Shown here: piece after piece, positions 15,110 to 53,650 of the stretch
Layout of the letters: each line of letters starts with the position of its first letter
How positions within the stretch are numbered: position 1 is the stretch's first letter
Origin: Candidatus Zhuqueibacterota bacterium
GTDB taxonomy: Bacteria; Zhuqueibacterota; JdFR-76; DREG01
DNA length: 64,000 nt
Reading direction: 5' to 3'
NCBI GenBank assembly: GCA_022566355.1
Contig: JADFJB010000001.1
Coordinates: 234 to 64,233, forward strand
The notes under the pieces: generated by a model
What the model was told of the DNA's origin: nothing
What the model saw: only the letters and a program-made list of their open reading frames with translations
Database searches by the model: none
Position numbers and translations under genes: made by a program

Positions 15110-15157
15110 TTGTTAACTTAAAATTATGGCTTTTTGTCCTAATCCTGTGTGATGCTC

Positions 15158-15544
15158 TTATAGATTCGCAATTATAGATTTCAATAAATCTCGAACCTCT
15201 TCTACGATCTCACCTAATTTAGAATTTTCCACCGCCTGCATAGAAGCCATTGGATCGATAGCAGTAACATCGACTTTGCCATCTTCAAACTCCTGTACGA
15301 TTACGTTACAGGGAAGCATGGTGCCGATTTTATTTTCTATCTGAAGCGCTTCGTAGGCAAACTGTGGGTTGCAGGCGCCTAATATGCGGTATTTGTAGAA
15401 GTCCACATCCAGCTTCTTTTTTAAGGTCTCCGTAACGTCAATCTCTGTGAGAATCCCGAAACCCTTTTCTTGTAAGGCAGCTGTAACATTTTCTATTGCT
15501 TCATCGAAGCTCTGATTCACTGTTTTTGAAAAATAGTAACTCAT
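15158..15544 (-). CDS. DUF302 domain protein
   Basis: 128 aa. The FGILTEIDVTETLKKK...YRILGACNP pattern matches DUF302, often linked to metal-resistance loci. Confidence 0.7.
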   Translation of the reverse strand: MSYYFSKTVNQSFDEAIENVTAALQEKGFGILTEIDVTETLKKKLDVDFYKYRILGACNPQFAYEALQIENKIGTMLPCNVIVQEFEDGKVDVTAIDPMASMQAVENSKLGEIVEEVRDLLKSIIANL

Positions 15545-15723
15545 TTTTTGTTCTCCTTATTTTCGTTTTGGCTTAATTTGTATCTTTTGTAAAATATAAC
15601 CAAAGGCAACATTGAATCATCAATGAAACTAAAAAACTTGATACTTATCTGTAGAGGAATGACGGATAACAAACGTGATCAAAAGTATTTTGTATCAAAA
15701 AACAACTCTCTCTATTGTACTCT

Positions 15724-18700
15724 TTAACTTGACTTCAAAACAGCAGAATCTGCCTGATCGATTTGATCTTCAATATTTTTGTTTAATCCGCGACTTCGCC
15801 ACAAAAAATAAATAGTAGGAATTACTAATAAACATAATATTGTCGTAGAAAATAGCCCTCCAACCATAGGGGCGGCGATTCGTTTCATCACCTGGGAACC
15901 GGCGCCATGGCCCCACATGATTGGTAGCAACCCAAGAATGGTTGTTGAAACAGTCATAACAATTGGCCGAATTCGCATAGCAGTTGCCTTCAGTATGACT
16001 TCTTTAAGATCTTGAAGGGAATGCAATTTGCCTTTCCGGTCATTGTAAGCATGATCCAGGTAGGTTAGCATGATAATGCCAATTTCCGCCGAGAGGCCGG
16101 CAAGCGCTATAAATCCAACTCCAACAGCAACGCTCAGGTTATAGTCGAGCAGATATATAAACCAAATACCACCGACGAGAGAAAACGGCAGCGACAACAT
16201 GACAATAAAGCTTTCTTGTATATTTTTAAAGTTGAGATAAAGCAGCAAAAAAATAATCAACAGGGTTACAGGGAGTACGATACGTAAGCGCTGTTGAGCT
16301 CGCACCATGTATTCATATTGTCCGCTCCAAACCAGGCTGTAGCCTTCAGGGAAATCTACCTCTTCTTCCACGACAATTTTAGCATTTTTCACATAAGTTC
16401 CCACATCAATATCGCGAATATCAATATACAGCCAGGCGGTACGTCGGGCGTTCTCACTTTTGATTACCGACGGACCTTTCTTGAATTCAATGTCTGCAAC
16501 GTAATTGATTGGGATCTGGGCGCCTGTGGGTGTGGCAATAAGCACCCGGCGCAGATCATCCAGATTATCTCTCAACTCCCGGCTGTAGCGCACATTTACC
16601 GGGTAACGCTCCAGACCTTCAACCGTCCACGTCACATTCATGCCGCCAATGGCCGACATTATCACATCCTGAATTGCACCTACTGTTAGGCCATATCTTG
16701 CAGCTTCCTCCCGATTAATGGTAAAATCCAGGTAATTTCCGCCCACAGTCTTGTCGGCAAAAACGCTGAGCGTTCCGGGGACATTTTTTACTACGGTAGC
16801 CACCCTTTGCGCCAGATCTGACAATACTTTAAGATCCGAACCCATAAGCTTAATACCCACCGGCGTCTTGATCCCCGTTGCCAGCATATCGATTCGTGTC
16901 TTGATCGGCATGGTCCATGCGTTTGTTAATCCAGGAAACTGGATGGATTGGTCCAGTTCTTCGATCAGTTTTTCAATCGTCATTCCCTCTCGCCACTCAT
17001 TCTCCGGCTTCAGCGTAATAGTTGTTTCGATCATCGAGAGCGGCGCTGGATCTGTGGCGGTCTCGGCGCGTCCGATTTTACCAAAGACATGGTGCACTTC
17101 CGGAAAGCTTTTGATGATTTTATCTGTCTGCTGCAAAAGCTCTTTTGCCTTGGTAATGCTGATACCTGGATCTGTAGTGGGCATGTAGAGCAAGTCTCCT
17201 TCATTTAGCGGCGGCATGAATTCCGATCCGATTCGCTGGAATGGTAAAATCGAAACAACCATGACTACAATTGCGACAATAATCGTCGACCACTTGAAGC
17301 GTAACACGAAATTGATCAAAGGTCGGTAGATTCGTATGAGAAACCGATTGATGGGGTTGACGTCCTCTGGTTTGATCCGGCCTTTGATCCAAAAACCCAT
17401 TAATACCGGTACAACGGTGATAGCTAACAAGGCAGACGCCGCCATAGCGTAGGTTTTTGTGAATGCAAGGGGGCTAAATAACCTTCCCTCCTGGGCCTGT
17501 AAAGTAAAGACTGGCAGAAAGGAAAGTGTTATGATCAACAAAGAATAAAACAGCGCCGGCCCAACTTCCTTAGCGGCATCGATGATAATAAGCCAATGAT
17601 CTTTCTTGCCGCCGTCTCTTTCGATATGTTTATGCGCATTCTCGATCATCACGATTGCCGCATCAACCATAACACCGATGGCTATGGCAATTCCGCCAAG
17701 AGACATGATGTTTGCAGTAATACCCTGGTAGGACATTATAATAAAAGCGATCAAAATTCCCATTGGCAGTGTAAATATGGCTACAAAAGCGCTGCGGAAA
17801 TGTAACAGAAAGATGATACATACCAGGGCGACGATAATAATTTCCTCGATCAGTTTGCGAGTAAGGTTATCGATTGCTTTATTGATCAACACAGATCGAT
17901 CATATGCTGCTTTGATGGTAACTCCGGGCGGCAGACCTTTCTTTAATTCTTCCATTTTTTCTTTTACAAGATCAATGGTTGCCAATGCATTTCCGCCAAA
18001 CCGCATTACGATGATGCCGCCGACAACTTCCCCCTCGCCATTCCAATCTGCTAAGCCGCGCCTTAATTCCGGACCAATGGAAACATTGGCAATGTTTTTG
18101 ATGAGTATCGGGGTGCCATGATTATCCACGCCCAATGGAATATTTTCCAAATCCTGTATAGACTTAATATATCCCAGTCCGCGCACCATAAATTCTGTTT
18201 CCCCGAATTCGACAAGGCGGCCGCCAACATCGTTATTACTGCTCTTGATCGCCATTCGAACTTTGCTGATAGAAATATTATATGCTGCGAGTTTGTTGGG
18301 ATCGACTTCGACCTGGTATTGTTTTACATAGCCGCCGATACTTGCTACTTCAGCAACTCCCGGTACGCTCATCAATTCATAACGCAGATACCAGTCCTGG
18401 ATCGAACGCAGCTGCTGCAGATCATACTGGTTGCCGCCATCCAACACGTATTCATAGATCCAACCTACGCCGGTTGCATCGGGTCCAAGTGTTGGATTTA
18501 CTCCCTGTGGTAGACGGCTGGAAACGAAATTCAAATATTCTAAAACCCGGCTGCGCGCCCAGTATAGATCAGTGCCATCCTCAAATATGATATAGACAAA
18601 TGAAAGGCCAAAGAAAGAATACCCCCGTACAGCCTTGGCAAAAGGCACCGCCAACATAGCGCTGGTAAGTGGATAGGTCACCTGGTCTTCCACCAACTGC

Positions 18701-18873
18701 GGCGCCTGTCCTGGATATTCCGTAAGAATGATTACCTGGACGTCGCTTAAATCCGGTATTGCGTCCACTGGCGTGTTGAGCAATTTATAAATACCGCCGA
18801 GAGCGATCATTATTGTGAAAATAATAACTAAAAAACGATTTTTTACTGAAGCTTCTATGATTCGTTCTATCAT
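15724..18873 (-). CDS. cusA: Cu(I)/Ag(I) HME-RND efflux permease CusA
   Basis: 1049 aa. AIPDLSDVQVIILTEYPGQAPQLVEDQVTYPLTSAMLAVP...FEDGTDLYWARSRVLEYLN...LGPDATGVGWIYEY is near-colinear with E. coli CusA by recall. Confidence 0.9.
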   Translation of the reverse strand: MIERIIEASVKNRFLVIIFTIMIALGGIYKLLNTPVDAIPDLSDVQVIILTEYPGQAPQLVEDQVTYPLTSAMLAVPFAKAVRGYSFFGLSFVYIIFEDGTDLYWARSRVLEYLNFVSSRLPQGVNPTLGPDATGVGWIYEYVLDGGNQYDLQQLRSIQDWYLRYELMSVPGVAEVASIGGYVKQYQVEVDPNKLAAYNISISKVRMAIKSSNNDVGGRLVEFGETEFMVRGLGYIKSIQDLENIPLGVDNHGTPILIKNIANVSIGPELRRGLADWNGEGEVVGGIIVMRFGGNALATIDLVKEKMEELKKGLPPGVTIKAAYDRSVLINKAIDNLTRKLIEEIIIVALVCIIFLLHFRSAFVAIFTLPMGILIAFIIMSYQGITANIMSLGGIAIAIGVMVDAAIVMIENAHKHIERDGGKKDHWLIIIDAAKEVGPALFYSLLIITLSFLPVFTLQAQEGRLFSPLAFTKTYAMAASALLAITVVPVLMGFWIKGRIKPEDVNPINRFLIRIYRPLINFVLRFKWSTIIVAIVVMVVSILPFQRIGSEFMPPLNEGDLLYMPTTDPGISITKAKELLQQTDKIIKSFPEVHHVFGKIGRAETATDPAPLSMIETTITLKPENEWREGMTIEKLIEELDQSIQFPGLTNAWTMPIKTRIDMLATGIKTPVGIKLMGSDLKVLSDLAQRVATVVKNVPGTLSVFADKTVGGNYLDFTINREEAARYGLTVGAIQDVIMSAIGGMNVTWTVEGLERYPVNVRYSRELRDNLDDLRRVLIATPTGAQIPINYVADIEFKKGPSVIKSENARRTAWLYIDIRDIDVGTYVKNAKIVVEEEVDFPEGYSLVWSGQYEYMVRAQQRLRIVLPVTLLIIFLLLYLNFKNIQESFIVMLSLPFSLVGGIWFIYLLDYNLSVAVGVGFIALAGLSAEIGIIMLTYLDHAYNDRKGKLHSLQDLKEVILKATAMRIRPIVMTVSTTILGLLPIMWGHGAGSQVMKRIAAPMVGGLFSTTILCLLVIPTIYFLWRSRGLNKNIEDQIDQADSAVLKSS

Positions 18874-18971
18874 GTTAGATTTCTCCGTGTGTCCATTGTA
18901 CTGAAAGATTCCATTTCTTCGAGAGACTGTGTGAAAATGGGAATAATTTTTATTACGATTCTAAAAGAACG

Positions 18972-19080
18972 CATGTCATTCCATAGGCTGCGTCCTGAGT
19001 GAAGTCGAAGGAAATCTTGTTATGGTTTGTGTAAGGTGTTGTTTTTTAACAAAGATCCAGTCACACGACGGGATGACATG
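18972..19080. repeat. structured intergenic repeat, copy B
   Basis: Terminal inverted repeat catgtcattcc ... cgacgggatgacatg. Shares ggaaatcttgtta with copies A/D, cgacgggatgacat with copy D, and core cctgagtgaagtcgaagg with copy C. Confidence 0.55.
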
Positions 19081-19168
19081 TGTCGGACTTTTTAAATTAT
19101 GTGATGATTCCATTAAACTTCGTGGTTAAAATAGTTTTCACACAGTAATCAGCGATAGAATAGCTGTT

Positions 19169-20716
19169 TCAGTGATTATGTTCTTTCGATTCCATGTTCT
19201 GCATGTTTTCCATCTCTTTCTTTTCTTTTGTTGCGCTATCTTGCGTATCCATTGGCTGTGTTTTTTTCTGTTTCTCAGCTAACAATTTTTGAATAACTTC
19301 TTGTAAGCGGCTTTCACTGTCAAGTAGAAACTGCGCTGAAATAACAACTTCTTCATTTCCAATGAGGCCGGAGATCACGCGGATTTTTCCGTTATCTCCT
19401 TCTTCTCCTAGTTTTACCTGCCGTGGTTCAAATTTTCCTTCACCCCGAACAACAAAAATCACATTTCGAGTGCCAGACCGTATGACCGCTTCGGATGGTA
19501 TGATTACAGCATCTTTTATGGTAGGAGTCTGGATTTCTATATTCGCATACATACCAATCTTTAGCTCCAGAACCGGATTGGAAAAATCAAGGCGGACATG
19601 AGCAGTCCGTGATTTCTCGCGAAGATATGGGTAGATATAAGCGACTCTACCATGGAAAATCTTTCCAGGCAGGTAAGAAAGCTCCATTTTTGCTTCCGCC
19701 CCTTCCCGAATCCATGGCAATTCATAGTCATAAATACTTGCGTGAACCCAGATACTGGACAAATCTGCAATTTCATATAAATTTGTACCCGCCTTAACAT
19801 GAAGGCCTTCAACAGCATTCTTTTGCACCACCATTCCACTTGCCGGCGATTCCAGCCTGATTGTTTTCTTTACTTCGCCGGTCTTTTCTAATCGATCAAT
19901 TTCTGATTTAGGAACATCCCAGTAGAGAAGACGTTGTCGGCTTGATTCAAAAAGTGACTCCGAGTTTCTTGTAATCGAATCAAAAGTGCTCTTGGCTAGT
20001 TTCTTCCGGTTCTCAAGAGCCAACAAGAATTCTTGCTGGGTGATCACTAGCTCCGGTGAATAAATTTCGAGGAGAGGCTCTCCTTTACGAACCATCTCTC
20101 CTACGTAATTCACAAATAGCTTTTCGATCCAACCGGAAATTTTGGTGGTTACAATATATAGTTTTTCTTCATTGTACTGGATCTTTCCCACCGTTCGGAT
20201 GGAACGGGTAAAATCTCCGCGTTCAACCATGGTGGTTCGAACACCCATGTTTTGTACAGTTACCGGGTCAATTTTTATATAACCACCAGCGCCAAGAGTT
20301 GTCTGGTCTTCATAGACTGGGATCAAGTCCATTCCCATCTTCGATTTCCCTGACTCGTCGTATATTTCAGTTGGATCCATGGGAGCTTGCCAATACAATA
20401 CTTTGCGCTCACCTTTCGATTGTGTATCTTGAATTTCAGATTCCCCAGAAGTAATCCTTACCGGAACAAGATCCATCTTGCATATAGGACATTGACCGGG
20501 TTCATGCAACAGAACTTCCGGATGCATTCCGCATGTCCATAACTGGCTCTCTTCCTGATGTTCCATCGCTGCCATTTCTGTGGTTTTTTCCTCTGAACCA
20601 CAACTGGATAAGCTTACAATTAACCCGAAAAGAAGTGGAATGGAAAGAAAGGTTAATGCCCTTACTGATAAGTTTGATTTATTTTTCATTCTGTACTCCA
20701 TTAATTTGATTGTCAT
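19169..20716 (-). CDS. cusB: efflux RND periplasmic adaptor CusB-like with N-terminal CxxPEV...CPxC metal-binding module
   Basis: 515 aa with signal/lipo region, then CGMHPEVLLHEPGQCPICKMDLV, then MFP beta-barrel/lipoyl domains. 4-bp overlap with upstream TolC gene. Ends in TGA. Confidence 0.8.
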   Translation of the reverse strand: MTIKLMEYRMKNKSNLSVRALTFLSIPLLFGLIVSLSSCGSEEKTTEMAAMEHQEESQLWTCGMHPEVLLHEPGQCPICKMDLVPVRITSGESEIQDTQSKGERKVLYWQAPMDPTEIYDESGKSKMGMDLIPVYEDQTTLGAGGYIKIDPVTVQNMGVRTTMVERGDFTRSIRTVGKIQYNEEKLYIVTTKISGWIEKLFVNYVGEMVRKGEPLLEIYSPELVITQQEFLLALENRKKLAKSTFDSITRNSESLFESSRQRLLYWDVPKSEIDRLEKTGEVKKTIRLESPASGMVVQKNAVEGLHVKAGTNLYEIADLSSIWVHASIYDYELPWIREGAEAKMELSYLPGKIFHGRVAYIYPYLREKSRTAHVRLDFSNPVLELKIGMYANIEIQTPTIKDAVIIPSEAVIRSGTRNVIFVVRGEGKFEPRQVKLGEEGDNGKIRVISGLIGNEEVVISAQFLLDSESRLQEVIQKLLAEKQKKTQPMDTQDSATKEKKEMENMQNMESKEHNH

Positions 20717-22011
20717 TTTCCCATTGCAAAATCACCGCCAACCGCACGTTCAAGCGCTGCCACTTGTTTGCAATAGTTGGCTTGTTCATTGGTATATGCC
20801 AATCGAAGTTGTAGAAGCATACGTTCTGCATCCAGTAAATTGAGAAAATCCAGTTTGCCGGTTTGGTACGCAGCAATGGCTGATTGCAAACTGCTCTCCG
20901 CTTGCGTAAGTAAACCCTGTTCGTACAAATCCAAAATTTCTGCCAGTGTTTTTATTTGAAAAATTAGGTCTGCAACCTCAGCTTGAACATGATTCATCAA
21001 GTTCTCATAGCTTAAATTCTGTGCCAGGATATTCTCTTCGGCCTGGTTCACACCAGCTTTTCTACCGCCTAACCATATAGGCAGGTTAATACCAACCAAG
21101 ATACCGAAAGGATCTTTACCTGAATCCGAAAATGAATTGTTTACCTTAGGAATTGTAATGTAAGTGGCTTGAATATTGAAATCCGGGTAGTAATTTTTTT
21201 TCGCCAATCTTTTGGCGAACTCAGCCTTTCGGATCATCGATTGATTGGCAAGCAGTTCTTGGCGCTGTGCAAGAGCCCGCTGCAATAATTGATTTTCATT
21301 GAGTTGAATCCTGCATGAATCGATCACCACAACGAGTCCAATGGGCGCATTCACTGGTTGATCCAACAAGGCATTCATTCTTGTTACCACGCCTGTTCGC
21401 ATTTTATCAAAGTTGAGTTGTTTAACGATGATGTTTGAAATTTCCACATGGGCTTTTAGTACTTGCGCCTGGATGCCTTGTCCGGTACTGTATCTTGTTG
21501 TAGCTACCTGGGCGAAATCACGGAGTAGATCAAGATATTGGTCGAGTATTTGTTTTGAACGGTCAACTTTGTAAAGATTGAAATAAGTAGTCTTTACTTT
21601 GAAAATCACATCACGGCGAACTGCACTCAGGTGATATTGGGCCGCTTCAGCATCCTGGTTGGCAATCTCACCTTTAAGACCAAGTTTGCCTGGAAACGGA
21701 ATGCGCTGTGTCAGCATGAATACATTTTCTTGCGGTCCAACTCGTGTTTCCACATTCTCTATCCACCTGGTATAACTTAACATTGGATCTGGCAGGGTAG
21801 AGACCTGGCTCGGAATATTGAGAAAAGCCAAGTAGCGTTTCTCAGCTGCTTGAATGGCAGGATTGTTCTGTGCAGCCTCTTGAATCAAATAGTTTAAGGA
21901 TACCGGGGCCTTGGTTTTCAAGTCACTTGCACCCGTTTTTCCCTGGGCACTAATTTGCCAGGGAATCCAAATCCCTGAAATCAAAAATAAATAGAAATAA
22001 ACTCGAAGCAT
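20713..22011 (-). CDS. TolC-family outer membrane efflux protein (CusC-like)
   Basis: 432 aa with signal peptide and TolC repeat structure. ATGA overlap with cusB-like gene. Confidence 0.8.
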   Translation of the reverse strand: MLRVYFYLFLISGIWIPWQISAQGKTGASDLKTKAPVSLNYLIQEAAQNNPAIQAAEKRYLAFLNIPSQVSTLPDPMLSYTRWIENVETRVGPQENVFMLTQRIPFPGKLGLKGEIANQDAEAAQYHLSAVRRDVIFKVKTTYFNLYKVDRSKQILDQYLDLLRDFAQVATTRYSTGQGIQAQVLKAHVEISNIIVKQLNFDKMRTGVVTRMNALLDQPVNAPIGLVVVIDSCRIQLNENQLLQRALAQRQELLANQSMIRKAEFAKRLAKKNYYPDFNIQATYITIPKVNNSFSDSGKDPFGILVGINLPIWLGGRKAGVNQAEENILAQNLSYENLMNHVQAEVADLIFQIKTLAEILDLYEQGLLTQAESSLQSAIAAYQTGKLDFLNLLDAERMLLQLRLAYTNEQANYCKQVAALERAVGGDFAMGK

Positions 22012-29638: not shown

Positions 29639-30169
29639 ATGAATAAGACAAAAAAAAGTTGTAAAGAAATTCGAGAGCAGGTGGTTCTTTTTCTTTTGTT
29701 CATCACTTCAGAAGATTGTTTGCAGGCATATGAAAACTCAATTTCACAAGAAAAACTTGCTTTTGAGTTGAGCCGGATCTGGTTCGACGAGATTTATATT
29801 CCGGGAATGATTTACCTCGTCGATGGTTTGAAGGGTAACTTTAGTGAAAATAATGCCCGGGAATTTGAGAAATGTTTCACAGAGAAAGAATTCAAATCAT
29901 TAGAACGATTCCATCGATTTTTTGAATTACGAATGGATATGCTTTCTAAAGACATGAAAAAGAAGGGAACCATCCCGCAAAACGACTCATGGCAGCATCT
30001 AAAAAAACATGCGTCCTATCTGGCTGATGAACTGGAACCGAATGCGGATGAAAAAAGAAAACATCTGGAGAGGATGGTTAAAGATGGATTGTTGGATGAT
30101 GGAAAGTTGCTGAAAGGCAGCATCCGGGATAAATGGGTGTTGCCGTTAACAACAACGATGGATAAATAA
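29639..30169 (+). CDS. hypothetical protein
   Basis: 176-aa ORF, the only plus-strand gene in a minus-strand region. Charged, helical, no recognised motif. Confidence 0.45.
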   Translation: MNKTKKSCKEIREQVVLFLLFITSEDCLQAYENSISQEKLAFELSRIWFDEIYIPGMIYLVDGLKGNFSENNAREFEKCFTEKEFKSLERFHRFFELRMDMLSKDMKKKGTIPQNDSWQHLKKHASYLADELEPNADEKRKHLERMVKDGLLDDGKLLKGSIRDKWVLPLTTTMDK

Positions 30170-30279: not shown

Positions 30280-30783
30280 TCACATATATTTCAATCCCAA
30301 TCCAATGTAAATAACCATAGCTGCGAACCCTATATTTACCATCAAAAGAAAGAAAATTTTTCGGCGAATTTTTTTATAGGATTCCGGAAACGATTCTAAC
30401 TTTTGATCATAGCTTCTAGCCATGGAGATTAACCTTGGACCGTACACCGAATTTTGTATTCCCTGGCTAACAATAATCAGTGTCACTAGAATTAGTTTAA
30501 AAACTAAAAAATTGATGTAATTTGAACTAAAGTTAAAATTACGCATATAGCTGACATTAATTAAATTGAAGATCCCAGTCAAAATAATCACTCCAATTGC
30601 TTCCCATTGAACCGTCTTAAACCGGTTATTTATTTTTATTAAGACTTCAGCAAATTCTCTGGTTGAAGCAAAGTGATTCTTTAAGACCGGACTTATAACC
30701 AACACAAAACAAATAGTGCCACCTACCCAGACGATGACAGCCAGGATGTGCAGCCACAGGATAAAAGTGCCGAATGTAAACAT
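30280..30783 (-). CDS. CopD-family-like 4-TM membrane protein
   Basis: 167 aa. LWLHILAVIVWVGGTI is the H..W.GG signature shared by CopD/DUF2214/HemJ-like small membrane proteins. Confidence 0.45.
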   Translation of the reverse strand: MFTFGTFILWLHILAVIVWVGGTICFVLVISPVLKNHFASTREFAEVLIKINNRFKTVQWEAIGVIILTGIFNLINVSYMRNFNFSSNYINFLVFKLILVTLIIVSQGIQNSVYGPRLISMARSYDQKLESFPESYKKIRRKIFFLLMVNIGFAAMVIYIGLGLKYM

Positions 30784-30940: not shown

Positions 30941-31453
30941 CTACATCCCCATCTGCTCTCTAACTTCTTCCAAGACCGTAGCATTGATTTCCTTAAAACC
31001 ATTCTCCATTGCATGCTGCTCAATTCTTTTTTTAATCATGGAGCGAACAAAAGAAGGGATTCTATCCATTCGTTCTTTGGCTTCATCCGTCCAAATAAGC
31101 TCACTATCGGATTCATATGCTTCTTCAACCATTCCGGTAAATGGACATTTTGAAGTGGGACTTGAATTTTCAGGTGCTTGCTCAACATCTTGGTTTTCGG
31201 TTGATAGCTCAGTATCTTCTTTTTGATAAGTCAATGAGCTTCTAATTTTTTCCATTGGCTCGGCTGGTACAGACCTGCCGCCAATTTTTACATCGAGGGA
31301 TCGTACCATCTGGGTTTCCATCTGGTTTGTTAGCATAGCGATGTCTTTGCCGCATTTCGGGCAATGAAAGATAACCGTCATCGAGCCGTTTTCAGGGCCT
31401 GAGGTCTCTTTCAGCTTCATTGCCTCATCGCATTCAACACATAAAAATTTCAT
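30941..31453 (-). CDS. zinc-ribbon + PCP_red (protochlorophyllide-reductase B C-terminal-like) domain protein
   Basis: N-terminal CVEC...CPKCG zinc ribbon. C-terminal LIWTDEAKERMDRIPSFVRSMIKKRIEQHAMENGFKEINATVLEEV closely matches the ChlB/BchB C-terminal (PF08369-type) domain by recall. Confidence 0.7.
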   Translation of the reverse strand: MKFLCVECDEAMKLKETSGPENGSMTVIFHCPKCGKDIAMLTNQMETQMVRSLDVKIGGRSVPAEPMEKIRSSLTYQKEDTELSTENQDVEQAPENSSPTSKCPFTGMVEEAYESDSELIWTDEAKERMDRIPSFVRSMIKKRIEQHAMENGFKEINATVLEEVREQMGM

Positions 31454-32362
31454 TCAATTCTCCAAGTTTAAAGTTTTTTCATATAAACTAACTTTAATTT
31501 TATCGGCTATTTGACGAATCGATTTTCCTGCCGGTCGGTCTGAATATTTCTGTAGAAAAAAATCTCCCTCATCTGCACAAACTGCGATCCTGGGGTCGAA
31601 CGGGATATTCCCTAAATATGAGATGCCATGTTTTATTGCAAATTCCTCAACATTACCGGCTGGGAATAATTCTTCCTCGTGACCACAGTTGGCACAAACA
31701 TGGTTAGACATATTTTCTATAATTCCAATAACCGGCGTTTTTAATATTTCATTTGCCATTTTTATAGATTTGCCAACCACAAATTGTGAAACCGCCGAGG
31801 GAATTGTGACAATAATAGTTCCTGTTATTTGGGGTAGTACATCAGCCAGGTTGGCTAATTTATCGGTGCCGGGAGGTAAGTCGATAAAAAGAGTATCCAA
31901 TTTACCCCAATTCGTATCAGAGAGAAATTCTCGCAGTGCTGCCGCTTCCATCATTCCGCGCCAGGTATAGGAGTCTTTTTGGGTCGGGGCGTCCCATAGA
32001 ACGGGAGAGCTGTCATCAGGCAAGAATAGATCCATCGACATAATTTTCATATTTAATTGGCTTAATACAGGCAGGGTGCCCGATTTTTCATATTTGAGTT
32101 TTTGGTTTCGAACACCTGTCATTTTAGCGATAGATGGTCCATTGATGTCCGCATCTAAAATCCCCACTTTATTTCCTGCCAGTGCAAAAGTAGATGCCAA
32201 ATTTACCGCAATAGAACTCTTACCAACTCCGCCTTTACCGCTCATCACAGTGATAATATTGTGAATGGAAGCCATTCTGGCTTGCATGCGATCTATTTGT
32301 TCGCCAACCTGAGCCACAATGTTTGAGCCACCGTCGCCTTTTATGTCGTGATACTTTTTCAA
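31454..32362 (-). CDS. mrp: Mrp/NBP35-family P-loop ATPase (ApbC-like)
   Basis: Deviant Walker A MSGKGGVGKSSIAVNLA and C-terminal CANCGHEE Cys motif. Stop/start abut the downstream PCP_red gene. Confidence 0.85.
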   Translation of the reverse strand: MKKYHDIKGDGGSNIVAQVGEQIDRMQARMASIHNIITVMSGKGGVGKSSIAVNLASTFALAGNKVGILDADINGPSIAKMTGVRNQKLKYEKSGTLPVLSQLNMKIMSMDLFLPDDSSPVLWDAPTQKDSYTWRGMMEAAALREFLSDTNWGKLDTLFIDLPPGTDKLANLADVLPQITGTIIVTIPSAVSQFVVGKSIKMANEILKTPVIGIIENMSNHVCANCGHEEELFPAGNVEEFAIKHGISYLGNIPFDPRIAVCADEGDFFLQKYSDRPAGKSIRQIADKIKVSLYEKTLNLEN

Positions 32363-32475
32363 GATTTAATGACTCTTTTTCATAAATGAAACTCAATGAA
32401 TATTGAAAATGAATGGGGGAATGGGTGAAAGGGAGAATGTGTGATTTTCATGTTTTAATTATCCATTTATCAGCT

Positions 32476-32769
32476 TTAATCGATCATGAGTACTATCTGA
32501 GATAATATACGATTATAACCTTCGTCAAATTTTAATGTTGCATCATCATCAATATACTTGCATCGATTAGATAGTTCTATTAGAACTTGTGTTTCACATG
32601 CCTCAGTTTCTGCATCGCTTAATTTTGCGATGAAAGCTGCTCTATATCTTCGTTTTCTCCATGCTTCTGCTAGATTAGTACAAACAGATCTTCATGAACG
32701 TCTTATTTGATCAACTAATGAAAATTTCTCTTCGTTTGGAAAACTTTTAGTAATTTTAAAAATTTTCAT
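32476..32769 (-). pseudogene. four-helix-bundle (23S rRNA IVS-protein family) gene with in-frame TGA
   Basis: MKIFKITKSFPNEEKFSLVDQIRRS-TGA-RSVCTNLAEAWRKRRYRAAFIAKLSDAETEACETQVLIELSNRCKYIDDDATLKF... matches the TIGR02436-type family (consensus ..QIRRAAVSIPSNIAEG..). Stop TGA at 32692-32694. Inserted between operon genes. Confidence 0.6.
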
Positions 32770-32806
32770 CGCTAGCTCAATTTCATTCTGATAAACTCTT
32801 AACTCT

Positions 32807-34894
32807 TTATAACTTTTTATTCTTGGCGCCATTCTCTATATCTCCCCGACTCTTATTAGAATCATTCTCCCCTTCGCCCATTCTCCCGTTCTCCGATTCA
32901 GTTAACTTCTGCCCCTTCTGGTTTTCGTTCCCTGATTCTGTTGAATTATCTTTATCAATATTTTTCATCATCTCCTCCATCATTATCCGCCCTTCAGCGA
33001 TGCCTTCTTCTGCGATTTCGAGTGTGATTAACTCAACTTTTATCTTATTGGCAAAATCCACAATTCTTTCTTTGGTTTTATCACGCATAAAGCCTTCCGG
33101 AACGCGATTAAGGCGTGCAACGGCTGAAGAAGTCCAGGAGAACTCGCCGTCTTTGATGATTTCTGTGGCCGGACCGCTTGCACTGTAAGGTGTCTTCTTA
33201 AGCTTCCCTCGCTCTTCGAGATTTTTCGTTTCCTCGATAACATCTCCGGCAACTTCATAAACCTGAAGTTTGGTTATGATCGGAATTTTCTTTACCCGGG
33301 CGGATTTCTCGATCTGCGCTTTCGTTCGTCGTCTTTGATATCCTGACGGAACCTCATGTAAAGCCTGCTTTGCATCGCTGGTCCATTTCAGTTTAATATT
33401 GTCAAAGGTTAACTCTTCGGAGATAGCACCTTCCAGGGGTGCAAGGTTTTCGATGGCTTGTTTGTCCAGTTTTTGGAATTGATCGGTTTTCGATTTACAT
33501 ATAGGGCAAATGACCGGTTTAATATCTTTAGCCGCATAGCCACATTCTTTACAGATATAAGTTTCGGACTCCAGCAGGTTGCCTTTGTCGATCGCCACCT
33601 CTTCCGCGATAATGCCCATCGCTTGCATGGCCTTTGGCGGCAAAATTGTTGACAGCGATTTTTCGATAATTTTTATATTGATAACCGAATGTCCTCTTTC
33701 CATGGCCCAACGATGTATAGTGGTCCGTGCAATCCCACGTACACCTGCAGGCGCCGTATTTAACAACTTGGTGGCGTCCTCGGTCCAGATCATAGATTCT
33801 TCTGCCCGAATATCGATAGCTGGCACAAACCTTTTACTGGATAACAGGACATTACAGGGCGCCATTCTGAGAAGGTTCTCGGTATTGCTGCCTATATCCA
33901 TTTCTTCATCACTGTGTACACCAATTCGACCCATTACCAGCAGCCAGGGTCTTTCTCGACGAACGTATTGAAGGATCTTTTCAAACGCTTTACCATCGAT
34001 TAAAGTAATTTTTAATTCAATGCCTTGTTCGCTTGCTATCCTGCGGGAGACTTCAAGATGCGATTGATAGATCTTGGCCAGACCAGTATCGATTACATCC
34101 TCATGAAGTTGTTCCTGCTCTTTAAATTTGAAAACCTTGGTCGCTTTTTCGGTTAGAACATGTACAAGACTGTTGAAAAGGGTGTAATGTAAATAAGGAT
34201 CATAAACGGAAATTGCTTCGACTTCTTTATTCAAAGCTTTTCCCAATTCAAGCGCAGTCTTTAAACCTGCAAACGACTCCGGACTGCCGTCAACACAAAC
34301 AACGATATTACCGCCGTTGCCCAGTTCATGCTTAACTTCTCCGTTGCCGCTCCCATCGAGTTGTTCTTCAAGGGGTGACGTGTTCTTGACGATCAAGGTG
34401 TCGGTTTTGATTCTACGAACCACACGATCTGTAACACTACCGATCACGCTATCTCTCACAGCGCCAAGCCCCAAAGCTCCCATAATCACCAGGTCGTAAT
34501 CACTTTCGTTGATATCATCAACGAGGACTTTATAATTCTTGCCATCGATCATTTTAGGTTCGAAAGGGATTTTCGCCGCCTGGCAGTATTTGTTCATCAC
34601 TTCCAGATATGAGTCTGAAATAAGTTCCAGTCCCATGGTGATCAGGGTGTCGTGGATGCTTCGTTGCTTCTCTAATTCTTCCTCAACTTGATACTCTTCC
34701 GGTAGGGTGAATTCCATCTGTTTAAACCGTATGTCATGCATCTTGGCTGCATAGGCATGACAACCAACCAGCTTTGATTCGAACCGTTTTGAAAAGTCAA
34801 CTGCAAACTCGATGCTCGATAAGGAATGATCTGAATTATCCACGGGAACATAAATCTTTTTAAACATAATTCTCCTTTCGAAGGCCTTTAGCAA
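32807..34894 (-). CDS. multidomain protein: 2x universal stress protein domains + zinc ribbon + 3x PCP_red domains
   Basis: USP motifs (KKIYVPVDNSDHS...; NIVVCVDGSPESF...), CKECG...CPICKS ribbon, and three W-T-(E/S)-(D/A)A...(V/I)P.G(F/Y/V).R... modules (MIWTEDATKLLNTAPAGVRGIARTT; LKWTSDAKQALHEVPSGYQRRRTK; FSWTSSAVARLNRVPEGFMRDKTK). Confidence 0.7.
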   Translation of the reverse strand: MLKAFERRIMFKKIYVPVDNSDHSLSSIEFAVDFSKRFESKLVGCHAYAAKMHDIRFKQMEFTLPEEYQVEEELEKQRSIHDTLITMGLELISDSYLEVMNKYCQAAKIPFEPKMIDGKNYKVLVDDINESDYDLVIMGALGLGAVRDSVIGSVTDRVVRRIKTDTLIVKNTSPLEEQLDGSGNGEVKHELGNGGNIVVCVDGSPESFAGLKTALELGKALNKEVEAISVYDPYLHYTLFNSLVHVLTEKATKVFKFKEQEQLHEDVIDTGLAKIYQSHLEVSRRIASEQGIELKITLIDGKAFEKILQYVRRERPWLLVMGRIGVHSDEEMDIGSNTENLLRMAPCNVLLSSKRFVPAIDIRAEESMIWTEDATKLLNTAPAGVRGIARTTIHRWAMERGHSVINIKIIEKSLSTILPPKAMQAMGIIAEEVAIDKGNLLESETYICKECGYAAKDIKPVICPICKSKTDQFQKLDKQAIENLAPLEGAISEELTFDNIKLKWTSDAKQALHEVPSGYQRRRTKAQIEKSARVKKIPIITKLQVYEVAGDVIEETKNLEERGKLKKTPYSASGPATEIIKDGEFSWTSSAVARLNRVPEGFMRDKTKERIVDFANKIKVELITLEIAEEGIAEGRIMMEEMMKNIDKDNSTESGNENQKGQKLTESENGRMGEGENDSNKSRGDIENGAKNKKL

Positions 34895-35238: not shown

Positions 35239-35607
35239 CTAATAAACAAACCCGATTCGATTATACACATAATTTAACCTGGTGAGAATGTAATTCAAGG
35301 TTTGATTTGCTTTCTGATCCTGGTTTGACTCCCCTAAAGAAATAGACATAATCGCGTTGCGTAAGTGATCCGTACTGGAATCCGGAAGTGGTCCATGTTT
35401 TGTTTCTTTAACACAATTAACAAAGTTTTTAAGCTCAAACCTGGCTTTAACAAGGGAATTATAAAAATCCGTTTCTGGTGTGAATTGGTTTGTGAGTTTA
35501 CTGATCCTGCTAATCTCAAGTTGAATGATTGCAGGCCCCATCTGTTGGAATTCCTTCCAACTGAGGAATTCGAGTTCATTCCAATCTTTTTTTTTAAGGG
35601 TAGACAT
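35239..35607 (-). CDS. hypothetical protein
   Basis: 122-aa ORF with no recognisable motif, downstream of the 199-aa hypothetical. Confidence 0.4.
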   Translation of the reverse strand: MSTLKKKDWNELEFLSWKEFQQMGPAIIQLEISRISKLTNQFTPETDFYNSLVKARFELKNFVNCVKETKHGPLPDSSTDHLRNAIMSISLGESNQDQKANQTLNYILTRLNYVYNRIGFVY

Positions 35608-35728: not shown

Positions 35729-36328
35729 CTAGGGGGGCTGATGTTTTGCTCCGGTATTAACAGCCCGCCACATTTGCAGCAGTCCTTTGAATTTTCTGCG
35801 AAATTCTGCAGAATCCTGTTGGATGGTCTCCCGTGTAAATTGAGGCAATAGATTTACCAGAAGCGATTCCATTTTTTCGATGGAAATCCAACCATGTTGC
35901 AGATAAGCCAGGGTAAGATGATAGTCCGGTTCATCTCCACGAGCGATGAAACGAAAGGCGACACTATAAGGATCGAAGTGCAAGAGTTTTAATTTATCCT
36001 GTTTAAAATTGCCATTATTGGAATAGATAGTATTTTCTGCTCGAATAGCTCGCTCTCGATATCCATCCGGTAATGGGATGTAATCACCTGGAGATTCATC
36101 GATCACCTCCACTATGAATTGATCCTGCGTTCGTTTTAACGCTTCTGAAAAAGCTGGTTTATGTTCGGGATTAATTTCAGATGCAATCTCAATTCGTTCA
36201 ATCCAATTGCGCCAGCCTTCGAATAAAAGACTGGTCTCGCCAACAAGATAGAGGTTACCGGCCTTGTTGTAATTAACACTTAGTTTTGATAGAAACTCCA
36301 ATAGGGTTTGGCCTTGAATTAGGTTCAT
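35729..36328 (-). CDS. hypothetical protein, possible degenerate nucleotidyltransferase fold (AbiEii-like?)
   Basis: LYLVGETSLLFEGWRNWIERIEIA resembles the G[ST]x9-13[DE]h[DE]h minimal NTase pattern with Glu replacing Asp. This is a weak call. Confidence 0.3.
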   Translation of the reverse strand: MNLIQGQTLLEFLSKLSVNYNKAGNLYLVGETSLLFEGWRNWIERIEIASEINPEHKPAFSEALKRTQDQFIVEVIDESPGDYIPLPDGYRERAIRAENTIYSNNGNFKQDKLKLLHFDPYSVAFRFIARGDEPDYHLTLAYLQHGWISIEKMESLLVNLLPQFTRETIQQDSAEFRRKFKGLLQMWRAVNTGAKHQPP

Positions 36329-36366: not shown

Positions 36367-36696
36367 TTAGTCTCTTATTTCAAGAGCTATTTTTAAAGTT
36401 TGATTTAATTCATTTAGTTTTAATGGGGATAACCTGCAAATGAAGTTTTTCAATATAATTTTAGAAAGGCTTACAAGCTCATCACAATGAATACTACTGT
36501 CATGTTTAAGTCCTTCAGCAATTCCAACTAATACCTGAGTGGATAAACCATCATGACTCGAATAAAGTGGTGCACAAATGACTGTAGAAAATTGTGAATC
36601 TATTAATAGTTGCCGACTAACTACTACAAATATTCTCGACTTTTTTGGATCCTTAGAGGAGGGCTTTTTAACTTTATATAAATCGCCACGTCTCAC
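36367..36696 (-). CDS. type II toxin, MazF/PemK (Kid) family endoribonuclease
   Basis: MRRGDLYKV...[30 protein letters not shown] matches the PemK/MazF N-terminal beta-barrel signature. 4-bp overlap with the upstream small gene. Confidence 0.75.
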
Positions 36697-36923
36697 ACGG
36701 GAACCTGGTAATCTAATACATCACTAGCTTCGTTATTGAGACGATCAGAATTGTTATTTATGATTTCAAGATCACAGCGATCCTGTACCTCTTTCAAATA
36801 TATCTCTATATAAATCCACAAAGCTTTTTCAATAAAATCTGATCGACTTTTATTTTGCCCTGATTTTTCATCAATAGCATTCAATAATTCTTCAGACAAT
36901 GTAACTGATGTTTTGATTTTCAT
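36693..36923 (-). CDS. RHH/CopG-type antitoxin for MazF-like toxin
   Basis: 76 aa. [30 protein letters not shown] is a ribbon-helix-helix N-terminal signature. Translationally coupled to the toxin. Confidence 0.6.
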
Positions 36924-52840: not shown

Positions 52841-53650
52841 TTGAATTCCAGGAGTAGTTGCATGGGCGAAGTTGTTTCAATTGCAAGTCAAAAAGGTGGT
52901 GTTGGTAAAACCACAACAGCGGTAAATTTGGGTGCTGCATTTGCTCATCTTAATTATAGAACATTAATAATAGATTTGGATCCGCAGGGAGGTATAGCCT
53001 CTAGTTTCGGGATGAGTCGCTATGATATAAAGGGTGGAATTCTACAACTATTCACAGAAAATATGCCTATTGAACAAACAATCCATTCTACCGAACTGAG
53101 TAATTTAGACTTAATTCCATGCAATGTTTGGTCCGATGACGATGAAAAAAGGAAACTAATCGGATCATCCGCAGAATCAAAACTGAAAGCTTGCTTACGT
53201 TCCATTAAAGAGGATTATGATTATTTTCTTATCGACTGTCCCCCAGCTTTGGGGAATCTAACTTATAATGGTTTGATTGCATCGGATTCGATAATTGTTC
53301 CAATTCAATGTGAATATTATGCTTTAAAGGCTTTAGGGCGTTTTTTAAAATTAACACGGACAATCAAAGAAGAATATAATCCATCATTGAAGTACCGTGG
53401 ATTCTTACTAACCATGTATGATTCGAGGAATAATTTAACCAAACGGGTTGTCGAAAAAGTAAAATATACCCTAAAGGGGATGGTGTTTGAAACGGTTATT
53501 CCACGAAATGTCAGGCTGGCAGAAGTGCCTTATTATGGCCGGCCCGTTATGCTTTTTGATCAAAAGTGTAAAGGTAGTCAAAGTTATATGCAGTTGGCGG
53601 AGGAGATGGTTGCTTCAAATCAAATTCAAATCAAGAAAGAAGTTGCCTAA
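52841..53650 (+). CDS. ParA/Soj/MinD-family P-loop ATPase (orphan; no parB adjacent)
   Basis: Deviant Walker A IASQKGGVGKTTTAVNLGAAFA (likely start at Met 52862). IIDLDPQG, and DYFLIDCPPALG Walker B region. Confidence 0.85.
   Translation: MNSRSSCMGEVVSIASQKGGVGKTTTAVNLGAAFAHLNYRTLIIDLDPQGGIASSFGMSRYDIKGGILQLFTENMPIEQTIHSTELSNLDLIPCNVWSDDDEKRKLIGSSAESKLKACLRSIKEDYDYFLIDCPPALGNLTYNGLIASDSIIVPIQCEYYALKALGRFLKLTRTIKEEYNPSLKYRGFLLTMYDSRNNLTKRVVEKVKYTLKGMVFETVIPRNVRLAEVPYYGRPVMLFDQKCKGSQSYMQLAEEMVASNQIQIKKEVA

Follow-up and report, generated by a model that had tools for sequence, protein, structure and literature searches.

What brings an Mrp/NBP35-type ATPase gene together with genes for PCP_red proteins, and what might such a gene set do? 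The question was raised by a 64,000-nucleotide stretch of a Candidatus Zhuqueibacterota genome (contig JADFJB010000001.1; hereafter the window), in which the initial annotation had described an operon of this kind. The core ORFs were confirmed on the minus strand with their coordinates as annotated (Table 1), and a Pfam search confirmed the annotated domains, with cutoffs reached except for a rubredoxin-like knuckle. The operon was real as far as its core genes are concerned, but hyp199, hyp125, hyp173 and a CopD/HemJ-like gene had been overlooked as members of a larger set. The core arrangement goes far beyond what chance would give, and the same gene order was seen again in several phyla. 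Taken together, the Mrp/NBP35 and PCP_red gene set is genuine, very widely conserved and uncharacterised.

Table 1. Genes and protein modules of the PCP_red locus in the window.
Feature	Position	Strand	Description
hyp199	35729..36328	(-)	199 aa, unknown, conserved ORF cluster
hyp125	35239..35607	(-)	122 aa, conserved, four-helix bundle; directly upstream of USP-PCP_red gene
USP-USP-PCP_red(M1)-Cys4-PCP_red(M2)-PCP_red(M3) protein	32807..34867	(-)	686 aa; Pfam
PCP_red M1 of large protein	about 33632-33805	(-)	
Cys4 of large protein	33497-33553	(-)	C439, C442, C454, C457
PCP_red M2 of large protein	about 33227-33400	(-)	
PCP_red M3 of large protein	about 32978-33151	(-)	
Low-complexity tail of large protein	about 32810-32944	(-)	lineage-specific
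23S-rRNA-IVP pseudogene	32476..32832	(-)	between USP-PCP_red and Mrp genes; PF05635
Mrp/NBP35-type P-loop ATPase	31454..32362	(-)	302 aa, TTG start; PF10609
Zn-PCP_red	30941..31453	(-)	170 aa; Cys4 knuckle pair and C-terminal PCP_red; PF08369
CopD/DUF4149/HemJ-like membrane protein	30280..30783	(-)	167 aa, four TM; end of same-strand array
hyp173	29639..30169	(+)	176 aa, unknown, conserved; convergent with minus-strand array

The large protein had been called as 695 aa from a TTG at 34894 on the minus strand; the ATG at 34867 is almost certainly the true start, since it is shared by every orthologue, and gives 686 aa beginning MFKKIYVPVD. Pfam detected two USP stretches (138 bits) and three PCP_red stretches (78.4 bits). 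The annotated USP-USP beginning stood, and the domains actually run USP-USP-PCP_red-Cys4-PCP_red-PCP_red, with a low-complexity tail at the end. The Cys4 site is a rubrerythrin-type rubredoxin-like knuckle with a sub-threshold match to PF21349 (21.8 bits, cutoff 26.5), and matches in relatives reached E 4e-12. The ‘zinc ribbons’ annotated in the PCP_red proteins are present as Cys4 sites, but zinc is a prediction and iron binding is possible. Across 16 aligned sequences, the mean column identity was 72%, and the G-x2-G-x9-G-S ATP motifs were invariant in both USP domains. By Foldseek, the USP part resembled the ATP-bound tandem USP TTHA0350 (3ab8, TMt 0.80) and also Rv2623. The family had at least 594 confirmed matches in species genomes of FCB-group phyla and Poribacteria, and we propose that the 686-aa protein is a scaffold.

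The 302-aa ATPase matched the Mrp/NUBPL model PF10609 (255 bits, E 8e-76) and had no DUF59 domain; its best NCBIfam models were MrpORP (257 bits, cutoff 450) and ApbC (195 bits, cutoff 348). Of 67 Mrp orthologues, at least 95% kept the GKGGVGKS Walker A motif and C223-x2-C226, so that the Fe-S or redox-related complex envisaged by the initial annotation is still plausible on sequence grounds. In addition, the subfamily carries its own 41-residue N-terminal extension, MK.Y.D[IL]..D[GA]GS.[IV]..Q[VI]..., whose length is constant across phyla. The start of the Zn-PCP_red gene abuts the Mrp stop with a 0-nt gap. Its PF08369 module (residues 121-165, 58.4 bits vs cutoff 32.5) also matched the C-terminal ends of ChlB/BchB and two NMR structures, 2kru and 2l09, and it is preceded by a CxxC...CxxC knuckle pair (C5xxC8, C31xxC34). 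The protein has a conserved C102-P-F motif; five cysteines were conserved in 58 orthologues, and 427 homologues had an identical architecture. Mrp and Zn-PCP_red form a strict pair that is probably coupled in translation. Furthermore, the 444-nt gap between the USP-PCP_red and Mrp genes contained a 23S_rRNA_IVP four-helix-bundle gene, unrelated to hyp125 when the two were compared, whose start (ATG at 32832) lies within the last part of the upstream gene. It has a single in-frame TGA (32692-32694), and with this stop masked it matched PF05635 over 104/106 profile positions (E 5e-29); the near-identical contig L004 gave the same truncated 46-aa ORF call. Together with its absence from the 95%-identical relative L005, these features bear out the annotated insertion of a pseudogene into the operon. 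Most other loci likewise had no IVP gene, and where it was missing the gap was usually < 100 nt.

The initial annotation had staked its proposal in advance on the co-occurrence of PCP_red and Mrp, and this was conserved: Mrp lay downstream of the USP-PCP_red gene in 59 of 64 informative loci, with Zn-PCP_red directly after it in 58 of these 59. Both genes were present in 58 of 60 loci and neither in one, and their presence was concordant in 59/60. In FCB-group phyla and Poribacteria, 5-7 genes travel together: hyp199, hyp125, the USP-3xPCP_red gene, Mrp, Zn-PCP_red and the CopD/HemJ-like gene, with hyp173 convergent. Haem-copper oxidase (COX) or cytochrome-bd-like CydA-like genes were found within 10 kb of the module in 52 of 54 long loci, and an AhbD/NirJ2-like radical-SAM (rSAM) gene stood beside it in 48 of the 54. 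Unbiased ORF clustering of 80 loci recovered rSAM (58), COX3 (43), cyt c-EB_dh (39), COX4 (38), CydA-like (36), COX1 (36), COX2 (35), CopD-like (31), SCO1 (27), CtaB (26) and CtaA (22). The module lies between or beside haem-copper oxidase genes, accompanied by CtaA, CtaB, SCO1 and DUF420, and cytochrome-bd-like oxidase genes of the OR-C/OR-N type in nearly all other lineages. The neighbouring radical-SAM/SPASM enzyme ends in a PCP_red module of its own; its best NCBIfam models were haem b synthase AhbD and NirJ2, which it matched at 316-340 bits, below the equivalog cutoffs of 500. Neither rSAM nor oxidase genes were found near the module in the window or in L005, its closest relative, and a toxin-antitoxin pair in the window occupies the position that the rSAM gene has elsewhere. 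The module can thus persist without a linked client, which in this lineage would be encoded elsewhere or lost. Judged by these gene neighbourhoods, what the window contains is the core of an accessory module conserved in respiratory-oxidase islands. This context suggests a role in cofactor supply or maturation for respiration and not a general stress role; the annotated ‘stress-regulated’ character had been taken from the USP name alone.

No functional clue emerged for hyp125, hyp173 or hyp199. The hyp199 ORF cluster, present in 14 loci, had many invariant columns (e.g. HFDP...RG.E.DY...TIQQD.AEFR) and no match in Pfam, NCBIfam or PDB sequences; elsewhere its gene is flanked by the AhbD-like rSAM gene on one side and hyp125 on the other. 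The hyp173 cluster adjoined the module in 28 loci and contained an invariant ERFHRFFELR-type motif; it had no match in Pfam or NCBIfam and no significant one in the PDB. The CopD/HemJ-like protein, with conserved His12 and Trp19 in TM1, matched the Pfam models CopD (27.3 bits, cutoff 32.1), DUF4149 (25.2 bits, cutoff 24.6) and, weakly, UPF0093, and the NCBIfam CopD model in its C-terminal half; a CopD-like gene directly followed Zn-PCP_red in about 31-37 loci.

The function of the Mrp-PCP_red module appears undescribed in the literature searched. The model that we favour, tentatively, is that PCP_red domains are interaction tags by which an Fe-S carrier, Cys4 adaptors and a haem radical-SAM enzyme may be assembled on a nucleotide-sensing scaffold. 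PCP_red would be a small three-helix tag for protein-protein interaction; the 686-aa protein, which has an Fe/Zn(Cys)4 knuckle besides its three non-equivalent modules, would be the scaffold, and Zn-PCP_red, as adaptor, would link the Mrp dimer to the assembly. Mrp would insert or repair [4Fe-4S] clusters in the oxygen-labile PCP_red-tagged rSAM enzyme, and possibly also in Cys-knuckle proteins. The rSAM enzyme would in turn make or modify a haem cofactor for the neighbouring oxidases, and the CopD/HemJ-like protein would act as anchor or hand-over point at the membrane. The model draws on the synteny with rSAM and oxidase genes, on the conserved motifs, on the kinship among the PCP_red tails and on the repeated fusion of PCP_red to USP, knuckle and rSAM/SPASM proteins. 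To our knowledge, haem-copper and bd-type oxidases have no Fe-S clusters, which we count against this model, as we do the sub-cutoff scores of the rSAM enzyme, the missing rSAM and oxidase neighbours in the window and L005, and the distant USP/multi-PCP_red proteins that occur without Mrp or Zn-PCP_red.

Taken literally, the initial annotation would have all four PCP_red modules dock onto the Mrp dimer as the C-terminal domain of BchB is supposed to do on BchL, forming a stand-alone, stress-gated complex for Fe-S delivery or a redox function. This is unlikely, although Mrp and Zn-PCP_red are tightly paired (0-30 nt gaps), the CxxC of Mrp is conserved, and DPOR and the gene cluster each have a PCP_red-tagged enzyme of tetrapyrrole type alongside a SIMIBI ATPase. 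A side-on state of DPOR seen by cryo-EM has BchL touching BchB alone, with the N-terminal peptide of BchL at the interface (the text names no contact residues), and the conserved N-terminal peptide of the Mrp subfamily faintly resembles this BchL cap (DG.GS..QV). However, no text in the DPOR literature searched has the terminal PCP_red module of BchB contacting or docking onto BchL; the role given to the BchB C-terminal helix is to cover or sense Pchlide in trans (PMC4071322, PMC12022308). In cyanobacteria, ChlB retains PCP_red although ChlL has no N-terminal cap. The PCP_red tails of rSAM, Zn-PCP_red and ChlB/BchB are mutual nearest relatives (35-45% identity), and scaffold modules M1-M3 are distinct and each highly conserved; the four module classes are only 25-35% identical to one another, which speaks against a single partner surface. 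Among 81 large PCP_red proteins, fusions to USP (42), rubredoxin-like knuckles (25) and rSAM/SPASM (4-5) were found, and none to Mrp. Distant USP/multi-PCP_red proteins adjoin bd-like oxidases, Rieske/cyt b and ABC-2 transporters without Mrp or Zn-PCP_red, so what stays constant beside PCP_red arrays is the oxidase context and not Mrp. PCP_red as a simple Mrp-docking domain is not upheld.

Alternatively, PCP_red may handle tetrapyrrole or haem: the multi-PCP_red proteins, as cytoplasmic chaperones or buffers of haem or a haem precursor, would receive the cofactor from the AhbD-like enzyme, CtaB and CtaA and deliver it to the oxidases, and Mrp would service the rSAM enzyme only. Known PCP_red enzymes all act on tetrapyrroles or are nearest to such enzymes (BchB/ChlB, the AhbD/NirJ2-like rSAM, one haem-oxygenase-like fusion), haem-protein complexes are the constant genomic partner, and the neighbouring membrane protein is a member of the CopD/HemJ clan. 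The whole of this reading is nevertheless quite improbable, as the module classes share no conserved His, Cys, Met or Tyr as a candidate axial ligand (their invariant positions hold W, A, P and I) and the Pchlide contact in DPOR is made by the helix that precedes the PCP_red module. Similarly improbable is a regulatory module in which the tandem-USP protein would sense ATP or other nucleotides, bind respiratory complexes via PCP_red and tune their activity, assembly or hibernation during energy or oxygen stress. The invariant ATP-binding signatures, the fold shared with ATP-binding tandem USPs such as Rv2623, the rank of USP as the commonest PCP_red fusion partner and the oxidase-operon association in lineages without Mrp or rSAM all fit; the strict pairing of Mrp with Zn-PCP_red, the Cys4 metal sites and the PCP_red-tagged rSAM enzyme are left unexplained. 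Copper delivery for CuA/CuB assembly, by a CopD-like importer, the Cys-rich Zn-PCP_red and hyp125 as a Csp-like four-helix bundle, is very improbable.

Several known systems resemble parts of the module that we tentatively interpret as a tagged assembly. The CydA-like genes with cytochrome c or Rieske/cyt b that flank PCP_red/USP genes in most lineages fit the OR-C/OR-N oxygen reductases, which lack a quinol site and have haem c or other electron donors (Murali et al., 2021, bioRxiv 10.1101/2021.01.16.426971); that paper mentions no radical-SAM, USP, Mrp or PCP_red partners, and the window, unlike OR-C/OR-N operons, has no such oxidase genes. The N-terminal 345 residues of the large protein, with both ATP-binding motifs, resemble tandem USPs (Rv2623, TTHA0350, UspE), but the protein adds three PCP_red modules and a rubredoxin-like knuckle and is far more conserved than typical USPs (55-77% identity across phyla). 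The usual rSAM neighbour aligns end to end with AhbD and NirJ2 and has CxxxCxxC and SPASM; it differs in its scores, in its extra C-terminal PCP_red and in its place in the oxidase islands of aerobes (though not in the window) instead of an anaerobic siroheme-dependent pathway. With the Mrp/NBP35/ApbC/NUBPL(Ind1) carriers and Desulfovibrio MrpORP, the window's Mrp shares the deviant Walker A, the bridging-cluster CxxC and a full-length PF10609 match, and like Ind1/NUBPL and MrpORP it appears dedicated to one client system and not to housekeeping. In contrast to ApbC and MrpORP, it falls below the equivalog cutoffs and lacks the N-terminal DUF59 of the former and the C-terminal NifB/X-like domain of the latter; its conserved N-terminal extension is unique, and its Cys4-PCP_red partner gene is obligate. 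DPOR (BchL/ChlL with BchN-BchB) is the sole characterised PCP_red system, the domain being the C-terminus of BchB/ChlB. Unlike DPOR, the gene set has no Oxidored_nitro (BchN/BchB) catalytic domains and no BchL/NifH, its ATPase being of the Mrp/NBP35 type; matches to the NCBIfam BchB models score 45-58 bits against cutoffs of 490-912, and PCP_red is carried by USP, Cys4 and radical-SAM proteins of non-phototrophic aerobes. In DPOR, PCP_red goes together with a SIMIBI ATPase whose dimer is bridged by a [4Fe-4S] cluster and with a tetrapyrrole-converting Fe-S enzyme, a combination that the gene set would share.

All domains named in the initial annotation of this gene array were confirmed by Pfam and NCBIfam HMM searches, the Cys4 knuckle alone scoring just under its cutoff. 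The operon described there, in which an Mrp/NBP35 ATPase gene lies among genes for proteins with PCP_red modules, also stood, and only the start codon of the large ORF (ATG at 34867, not TTG) and the domain order of its product needed small corrections; the ATG is preferred because it is used by all orthologues. Transcription of the minus-strand array runs in the order hyp199, hyp125, large ORF, gap, Mrp, Zn-PCP_red and CopD-like, where hyp199 and hyp125, like hyp173, stand for families without annotation. Promoter and terminator scans remained at background level, and an Rfam search of the window gave no match. Chance adjacency and spurious PCP_red matches were both considered and rejected. 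Elsewhere in the window, a copper/silver-type resistance block (12656-22011, minus strand) lies 9-18 kb from the CopD-like gene, and just upstream of ftsZ, near a MinD/ParA-like ORF, is a 966-aa ORF that matched nothing in Pfam at E ≤ 1e-5.

Features of the PCP_red gene array and of other loci in the window
Feature	Position	Strand	Remark
P-type ATPase with YHS and HMBD domains	12656-15109	minus	copper/silver-type block
RND pump-sized ORF, unannotated	15724-18873	minus	copper/silver-type block
CusB-like adaptor with HMBD	19169-20716	minus	copper/silver-type block
Outer-membrane factor	20713-22011	minus	copper/silver-type block
hyp173, 176 aa	29639-30169	plus	convergent with minus-strand array
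CopD/DUF4149/HemJ-like, 167 aa	30280-30783	minus	ORF
Zn-PCP_red, 170 aa	30941-31453	minus	start abuts Mrp stop
Mrp, 302 aa	31454-32362	minus	TTG start; PF10609
444-nt gap between large ORF and Mrp gene		minus	encodes probable 23S-rRNA-IVP-type pseudogene
USP-3xPCP_red large ORF	32807-34894 from first TTG; 32807-34867 from ATG (686 aa)	minus	
hyp125, 122 aa	35239-35607	minus	ORF
hyp199, 199 aa	35729-36328	minus	ORF
PemK-type toxin (109 aa) and small antitoxin-like ORF (76 aa)	36367-36923	minus	immediately upstream of hyp199
MinD/ParA-like ORF	52841-53650		
966-aa ORF	54367-57267	plus	
ftsZ	57329-59092		

The 686-aa protein combines two USP domains (PF00582, 138 bits in two stretches) with three PCP_red modules, M1 to M3 (PF08369, 78.4 bits in three stretches; gathering score 32.5 bits). 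Both USP domains have the fold and the G-x2-G-x9-G-[ST] motif of ATP-binding USPs; the motif residues (G130/G133/G143-S144 and G313/G316/G326-S327) are either invariant or conserved to 90% or more, and both motifs, as G-x2-G-x9-G-S, were invariant among 16 aligned members from several phyla, whose mean column identity was 72%. The AF2 model was of moderate quality (pLDDT 68), and Foldseek found structural relatives only for the tandem-USP half, namely Rv2623 and TTHA0350 (ATP-bound structure 3ab8, TMt 0.80). Between M1 and M2 lies a rubrerythrin-type Cys4 knuckle, a putative rubredoxin-like metal site, which scored 21.8 bits against PF21349 (RUBY_RBDX; cutoff 26.5). Its four cysteines (C439, C442, C454 and C457) do not vary among family members; PF21349 also matched 25 of 81 related PCP_red proteins (best E 4e-12). 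Identity within the 686-aa family is 55-77% across phyla, implying strong selection. A scan of one genome per species gave at least 594 confirmed matches to the architecture, the best 80 of which came from Latescibacterota, Calditrichia, Rhodothermales, Krumholzibacteriia, Bacteroidota, Poribacteria and 'Deferribacteres'/Marinimicrobia-type MAGs; the last group (95% identity) represents the window's own lineage, which is 95% identical to a MAG labelled Deferribacteres. L005 is a 95%-identical relative. No cultured carrier was found among the named matches. At the C-terminus, residues ~642-686 (32810-32944, minus strand) form a low-complexity tail rich in E, K, N and G, which is confined to the window's lineage, with a partial version in an 85% relative (P0002) and none in all other family members; AF2 confidence there was below 30.

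The 302-aa protein belongs to the Mrp/NBP35 (SIMIBI) family, with a full-length match to PF10609 (Mrp/NUBPL; 255 bits, model positions 2-245 of 246), a deviant Walker A motif and a CxxC pair. The GKGGVGKS motif and the CxxC pair, the latter a ligand motif for a bridging Fe-S cluster, are each kept in at least 95% of 67 orthologues; the protein is a putative Fe-S carrier. It scored below the NCBIfam equivalog cutoffs for ApbC (195 bits against 348) and MrpORP (257 bits against 450, aligned over positions 1-250 of 365); unlike these proteins, it has a unique 41-residue N-terminal extension and neither the DUF59 domain of ApbC nor the C-terminal NifB-X-like domain of MrpORP. The extension (32240-32362, minus strand), which replaces DUF59, is fixed in length and conserved across phyla, with the consensus MK.Y.D[IL]..D[GA]GS.[IV]..Q[VI]..Q..R. 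It faintly recalls DGEGSVQVH of the BchL cap, in a gapped alignment too short to count as evidence. The BchL N-terminal cap is specific to DPOR and autoinhibitory, and masks the [4Fe-4S] cluster.

Zn-PCP_red, a 170-aa Cys4 protein with a single PCP_red module (PF08369, 58.4 bits in one stretch; gathering score 32.5), keeps five cysteines in the orthologue alignment (C5xxC8, C31xxC34 and a C-P-F motif); the PCP_red module matches in sequence the ChlB/BchB C-termini and the structures 2kru and 2l09. Pairing was counted in loci from the best 80 of at least 594 matches, 64 of which extend at least 2.5 kb downstream and 60 at least 4 kb. Mrp lay downstream on the same strand in 59 of 64 loci, and Zn-PCP_red followed it directly in 58, typically 10-70 nt away. 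In the 60 longer loci both genes were present in 58, both were absent in one and one had them split. The co-occurrence of PCP_red with Mrp, which had been put forward as a test of the operon, is thus conserved. These counts and the conserved motifs together demonstrate that the Mrp/Zn-PCP_red pairing is real and under selection; the pair is strict, and the ATPase, Fe-S-ligand, USP-ATP and Cys4 motifs are intact. Among the surveyed loci, L036 of Rhodothermales (8121-10854) is the sole case in which Mrp is missing and Zn-PCP_red directly follows, or overlaps, the USP-PCP_red gene.

All ORFs of the 80 loci were clustered without preconceptions, and the clusters were annotated by Pfam and NCBIfam. 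The usual neighbour was a radical-SAM/SPASM enzyme with a C-terminal PCP_red module (rSAM), present near the module in 58 of the 80 loci by ORF clustering and in 72 by tblastn. It scored 316-321 bits against AhbD (TIGR04545) and 309-340 against NirJ2, below the cutoff of 500 that applies to both models. The neighbourhood also holds haem-copper oxidase genes (COX1-4), CtaA, CtaB, SCO1, DUF420, a CydA-like protein, several c-type cytochromes including a cyt c-EB_dh fusion, a CopD/DUF4149/HemJ-like membrane protein, and hyp125, hyp173 and hyp199. In the 54 loci of at least 19 kb, COX or CydA-like genes lay within 10 kb in 52, rSAM in 48 and Mrp in 53. On a typical chromosome of Rhodothermales the gene order is CydA-like, cyt c, cyt c, cyt c-EB_dh, rSAM-PCP_red, hyp125, USP-3xPCP_red, Mrp, Zn-PCP_red, (hyp173), ..., COX1, COX3, COX2. 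What these counts show is a conserved multi-gene module that is linked to islands of terminal-oxidase genes and to an AhbD-like rSAM bearing a PCP_red tag. The window retains hyp199, hyp125, the USP-PCP_red/Mrp/Zn-PCP_red trio, the CopD-like gene and hyp173; no rSAM, COX or CydA-like gene occurs anywhere in its 64 kb, and the context in L005 is likewise stripped. The PemK-type toxin-antitoxin pair occupies the place that rSAM has in other genomes, so the break in synteny coincides with this pair. In Poribacteria (L055-L084), a 137-aa single-PCP_red protein and a 126-aa unannotated protein follow the rSAM gene (e.g. L072, 19366-20275), an ABC-2 transporter is added, and the USP-PCP_red gene is separated from Mrp by an insertion of up to 9 kb, with genes for USP, a BamB/PQQ-like protein, SDH flavoprotein and Fe-S subunits, and fumarase. 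The Myxococcus 'oxygen utilization regulon' was rejected as a lead, since 'Mrp' there is the response regulator MrpB.

The initial annotation had also proposed that a four-helix-bundle pseudogene invaded the operon, and this was borne out. The 444-nt gap encodes a 23S-rRNA-IVP four-helix-bundle gene that has an ATG of its own (32832) and one TGA in frame (32692-32694); the match to PF05635 is full-length (E 5e-29) only with the TGA masked, so this is either a pseudogene or a gene that is recoded or was misread. It is absent from L005 and most other genomes, in which USP and Mrp lie less than 100 nt apart. The hyp125 protein, identical to MCH8124368.1 (labelled candidate division KSB1), has a generic four-helix-bundle fold; a relationship to the inserted IVP pseudogene was rejected on comparison. 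Neither hyp125, hyp173 nor hyp199 has relatives in Pfam, NCBIfam or PDB sequences, and no relatives of hyp173 and hyp199 were detectable.

An exhaustive PCP_red profile search yielded 1,944 representatives of clusters at 50% identity, the best 150 of which have between two and six copies of the module. In the 81 proteins of at least 280 aa among these 150, the fusion partners were USP (42), the rubredoxin-like knuckle (25), SPASM/radical SAM (5/4) and, more rarely, DUF7130 (4), HypA-like (2) and a haem-oxygenase-like domain (1). Distant USP/PCP_red variants adjoin respiratory genes without Mrp or Zn-PCP_red: L086 (8001-11444) has a CydA-like/cyt c block, rSAM-PCP_red and a 1,147-aa six-module USP protein, and L087 (8001-10700) and L089 (6743-9346) have USP/PCP_red, ABC-2 transporter, CydA-like and Rieske/cyt b genes. 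Respiratory haem complexes are thus the constant theme, to which the FCB/Poribacteria version typically adds the Mrp/Zn-PCP_red pair. Distant relatives either have five or six PCP_red modules in one protein (up to 1,147 aa, with DUF7130) or have the USP and six-module array as two genes; an ABC-2 transporter, CydA-like genes and Rieske/cyt b come next. This suggests that PCP_red arrays and bd-like oxidases of the OR-C/OR-N type are linked more broadly, in a way so far undescribed. The CydA-like genes near the distant variants fit the uncharacterised OR-C/OR-N families (Murali et al., 2021, bioRxiv 10.1101/2021.01.16.426971), a paper that does not mention radical-SAM, USP, Mrp or PCP_red partners. 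Conservation is high within each of the four module classes, M1, M2, M3 and that of Zn-PCP_red (Z), but identity between classes is only 25-35%. Closest to one another are Z, the rSAM tail and the module of ChlB/BchB (35-45% identity), which have in common the motif R-[IV]-P-x-F-[VA]-R. This pattern would fit a division into 'client-type' tags (Z, rSAM tail, ChlB/BchB) and 'scaffold-type' receptors (M1-M3).

Although every domain is known, the system is uncharacterised, and the literature that could be searched gave neither a description of it nor a function of the PCP_red module set. We read it as a putative dedicated Fe-S-carrier/adaptor set for a cofactor enzyme. Tentatively, PCP_red modules may act as interaction tags, the USP protein as a nucleotide-sensing scaffold, and Zn-PCP_red as the link between the Mrp Fe-S carrier and the assembly; the client would be the oxygen-labile rSAM, which would make or modify haem for the oxidases. 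That all PCP_red modules literally dock Mrp, as the initial annotation envisaged, appears unlikely; the strict pairing of Mrp and Zn-PCP_red speaks for it, and against it that no PCP_red fusion to a ParA/Mrp ATPase occurs among the 81 proteins. We hold it quite improbable that PCP_red is a tetrapyrrole or haem chaperone, although the presence of the module in ChlB/BchB and as a tail of an AhbD-like enzyme speaks for this. That the USP module is purely regulatory and acts on respiratory complexes, a reading favoured by the USP fusions and the oxidase context but one that leaves the strict Mrp/Zn-PCP_red pair unexplained, is likewise quite doubtful. Copper handling is highly improbable. The CopD-like protein scored 27.3 bits against CopD (below 32.1), 25.2 against DUF4149 (above 24.6) and E 0.039 against UPF0093/HemJ; conservation is at least 80% at His12 in TM1 and at least 95% at Trp19.

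To our knowledge, no function has been assigned to PCP_red outside DPOR, and hardly any inside it, and yet it defines about 1,900 clusters at 50% identity. In abundant lineages that are marine or associated with sponges (the window's own, Marinimicrobia, Rhodothermales, Calditrichia, Latescibacterota and Poribacteria), the module consistently lies within terminal-oxidase islands, where it adjoins an oxygen-sensitive AhbD-like radical-SAM enzyme in aerobes, with a dedicated Mrp Fe-S carrier. It bears on the synthesis, modification and delivery of haem cofactors for haem-copper and bd-like oxidases, on how radical-SAM enzymes stay active in oxic cells, and on what the BchB tail and the BchL cap, both add-ons peculiar to DPOR, actually do.

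Compared with DPOR (BchL/ChlL with BchN-BchB), the PCP_red proteins of the window are not B subunits: only the last ~50-90 positions of the BchB/ChlB models align (29-58 bits against 490-912), and no Oxidored_nitro domain was matched in them by Pfam. In BchB, the C-terminal helix (residues 398-420) credited with covering or sensing substrate in trans (PMC4071322, PMC12022308) lies upstream of the PCP_red module, and binding of BchL by the terminal module is stated nowhere in the text of the DPOR papers and reviews examined. A 2025 cryo-EM study of DPOR described a side-on state in which BchL touches BchB only and the BchL N-terminal peptide (residues 7-30) is ordered at the interface, the residues of contact not being named in the text. 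It is very unlikely, on present evidence, that PCP_red is a general docking tag coupling tetrapyrrole Fe-S enzymes to [4Fe-4S]-bridged SIMIBI ATPases, with Mrp not a passive cluster carrier but an ATP-gated, BchL/NifH-like electron donor (or cluster insertase) for an AhbD-like radical-SAM haem enzyme, whereby the conserved N-terminal peptide of Mrp would cap the cluster as in BchL. If true, a second system of the type 'Fe-protein + catalytic component', not related to nitrogenase, would operate in aerobic bacteria, where it would make or modify haem for terminal oxidases.
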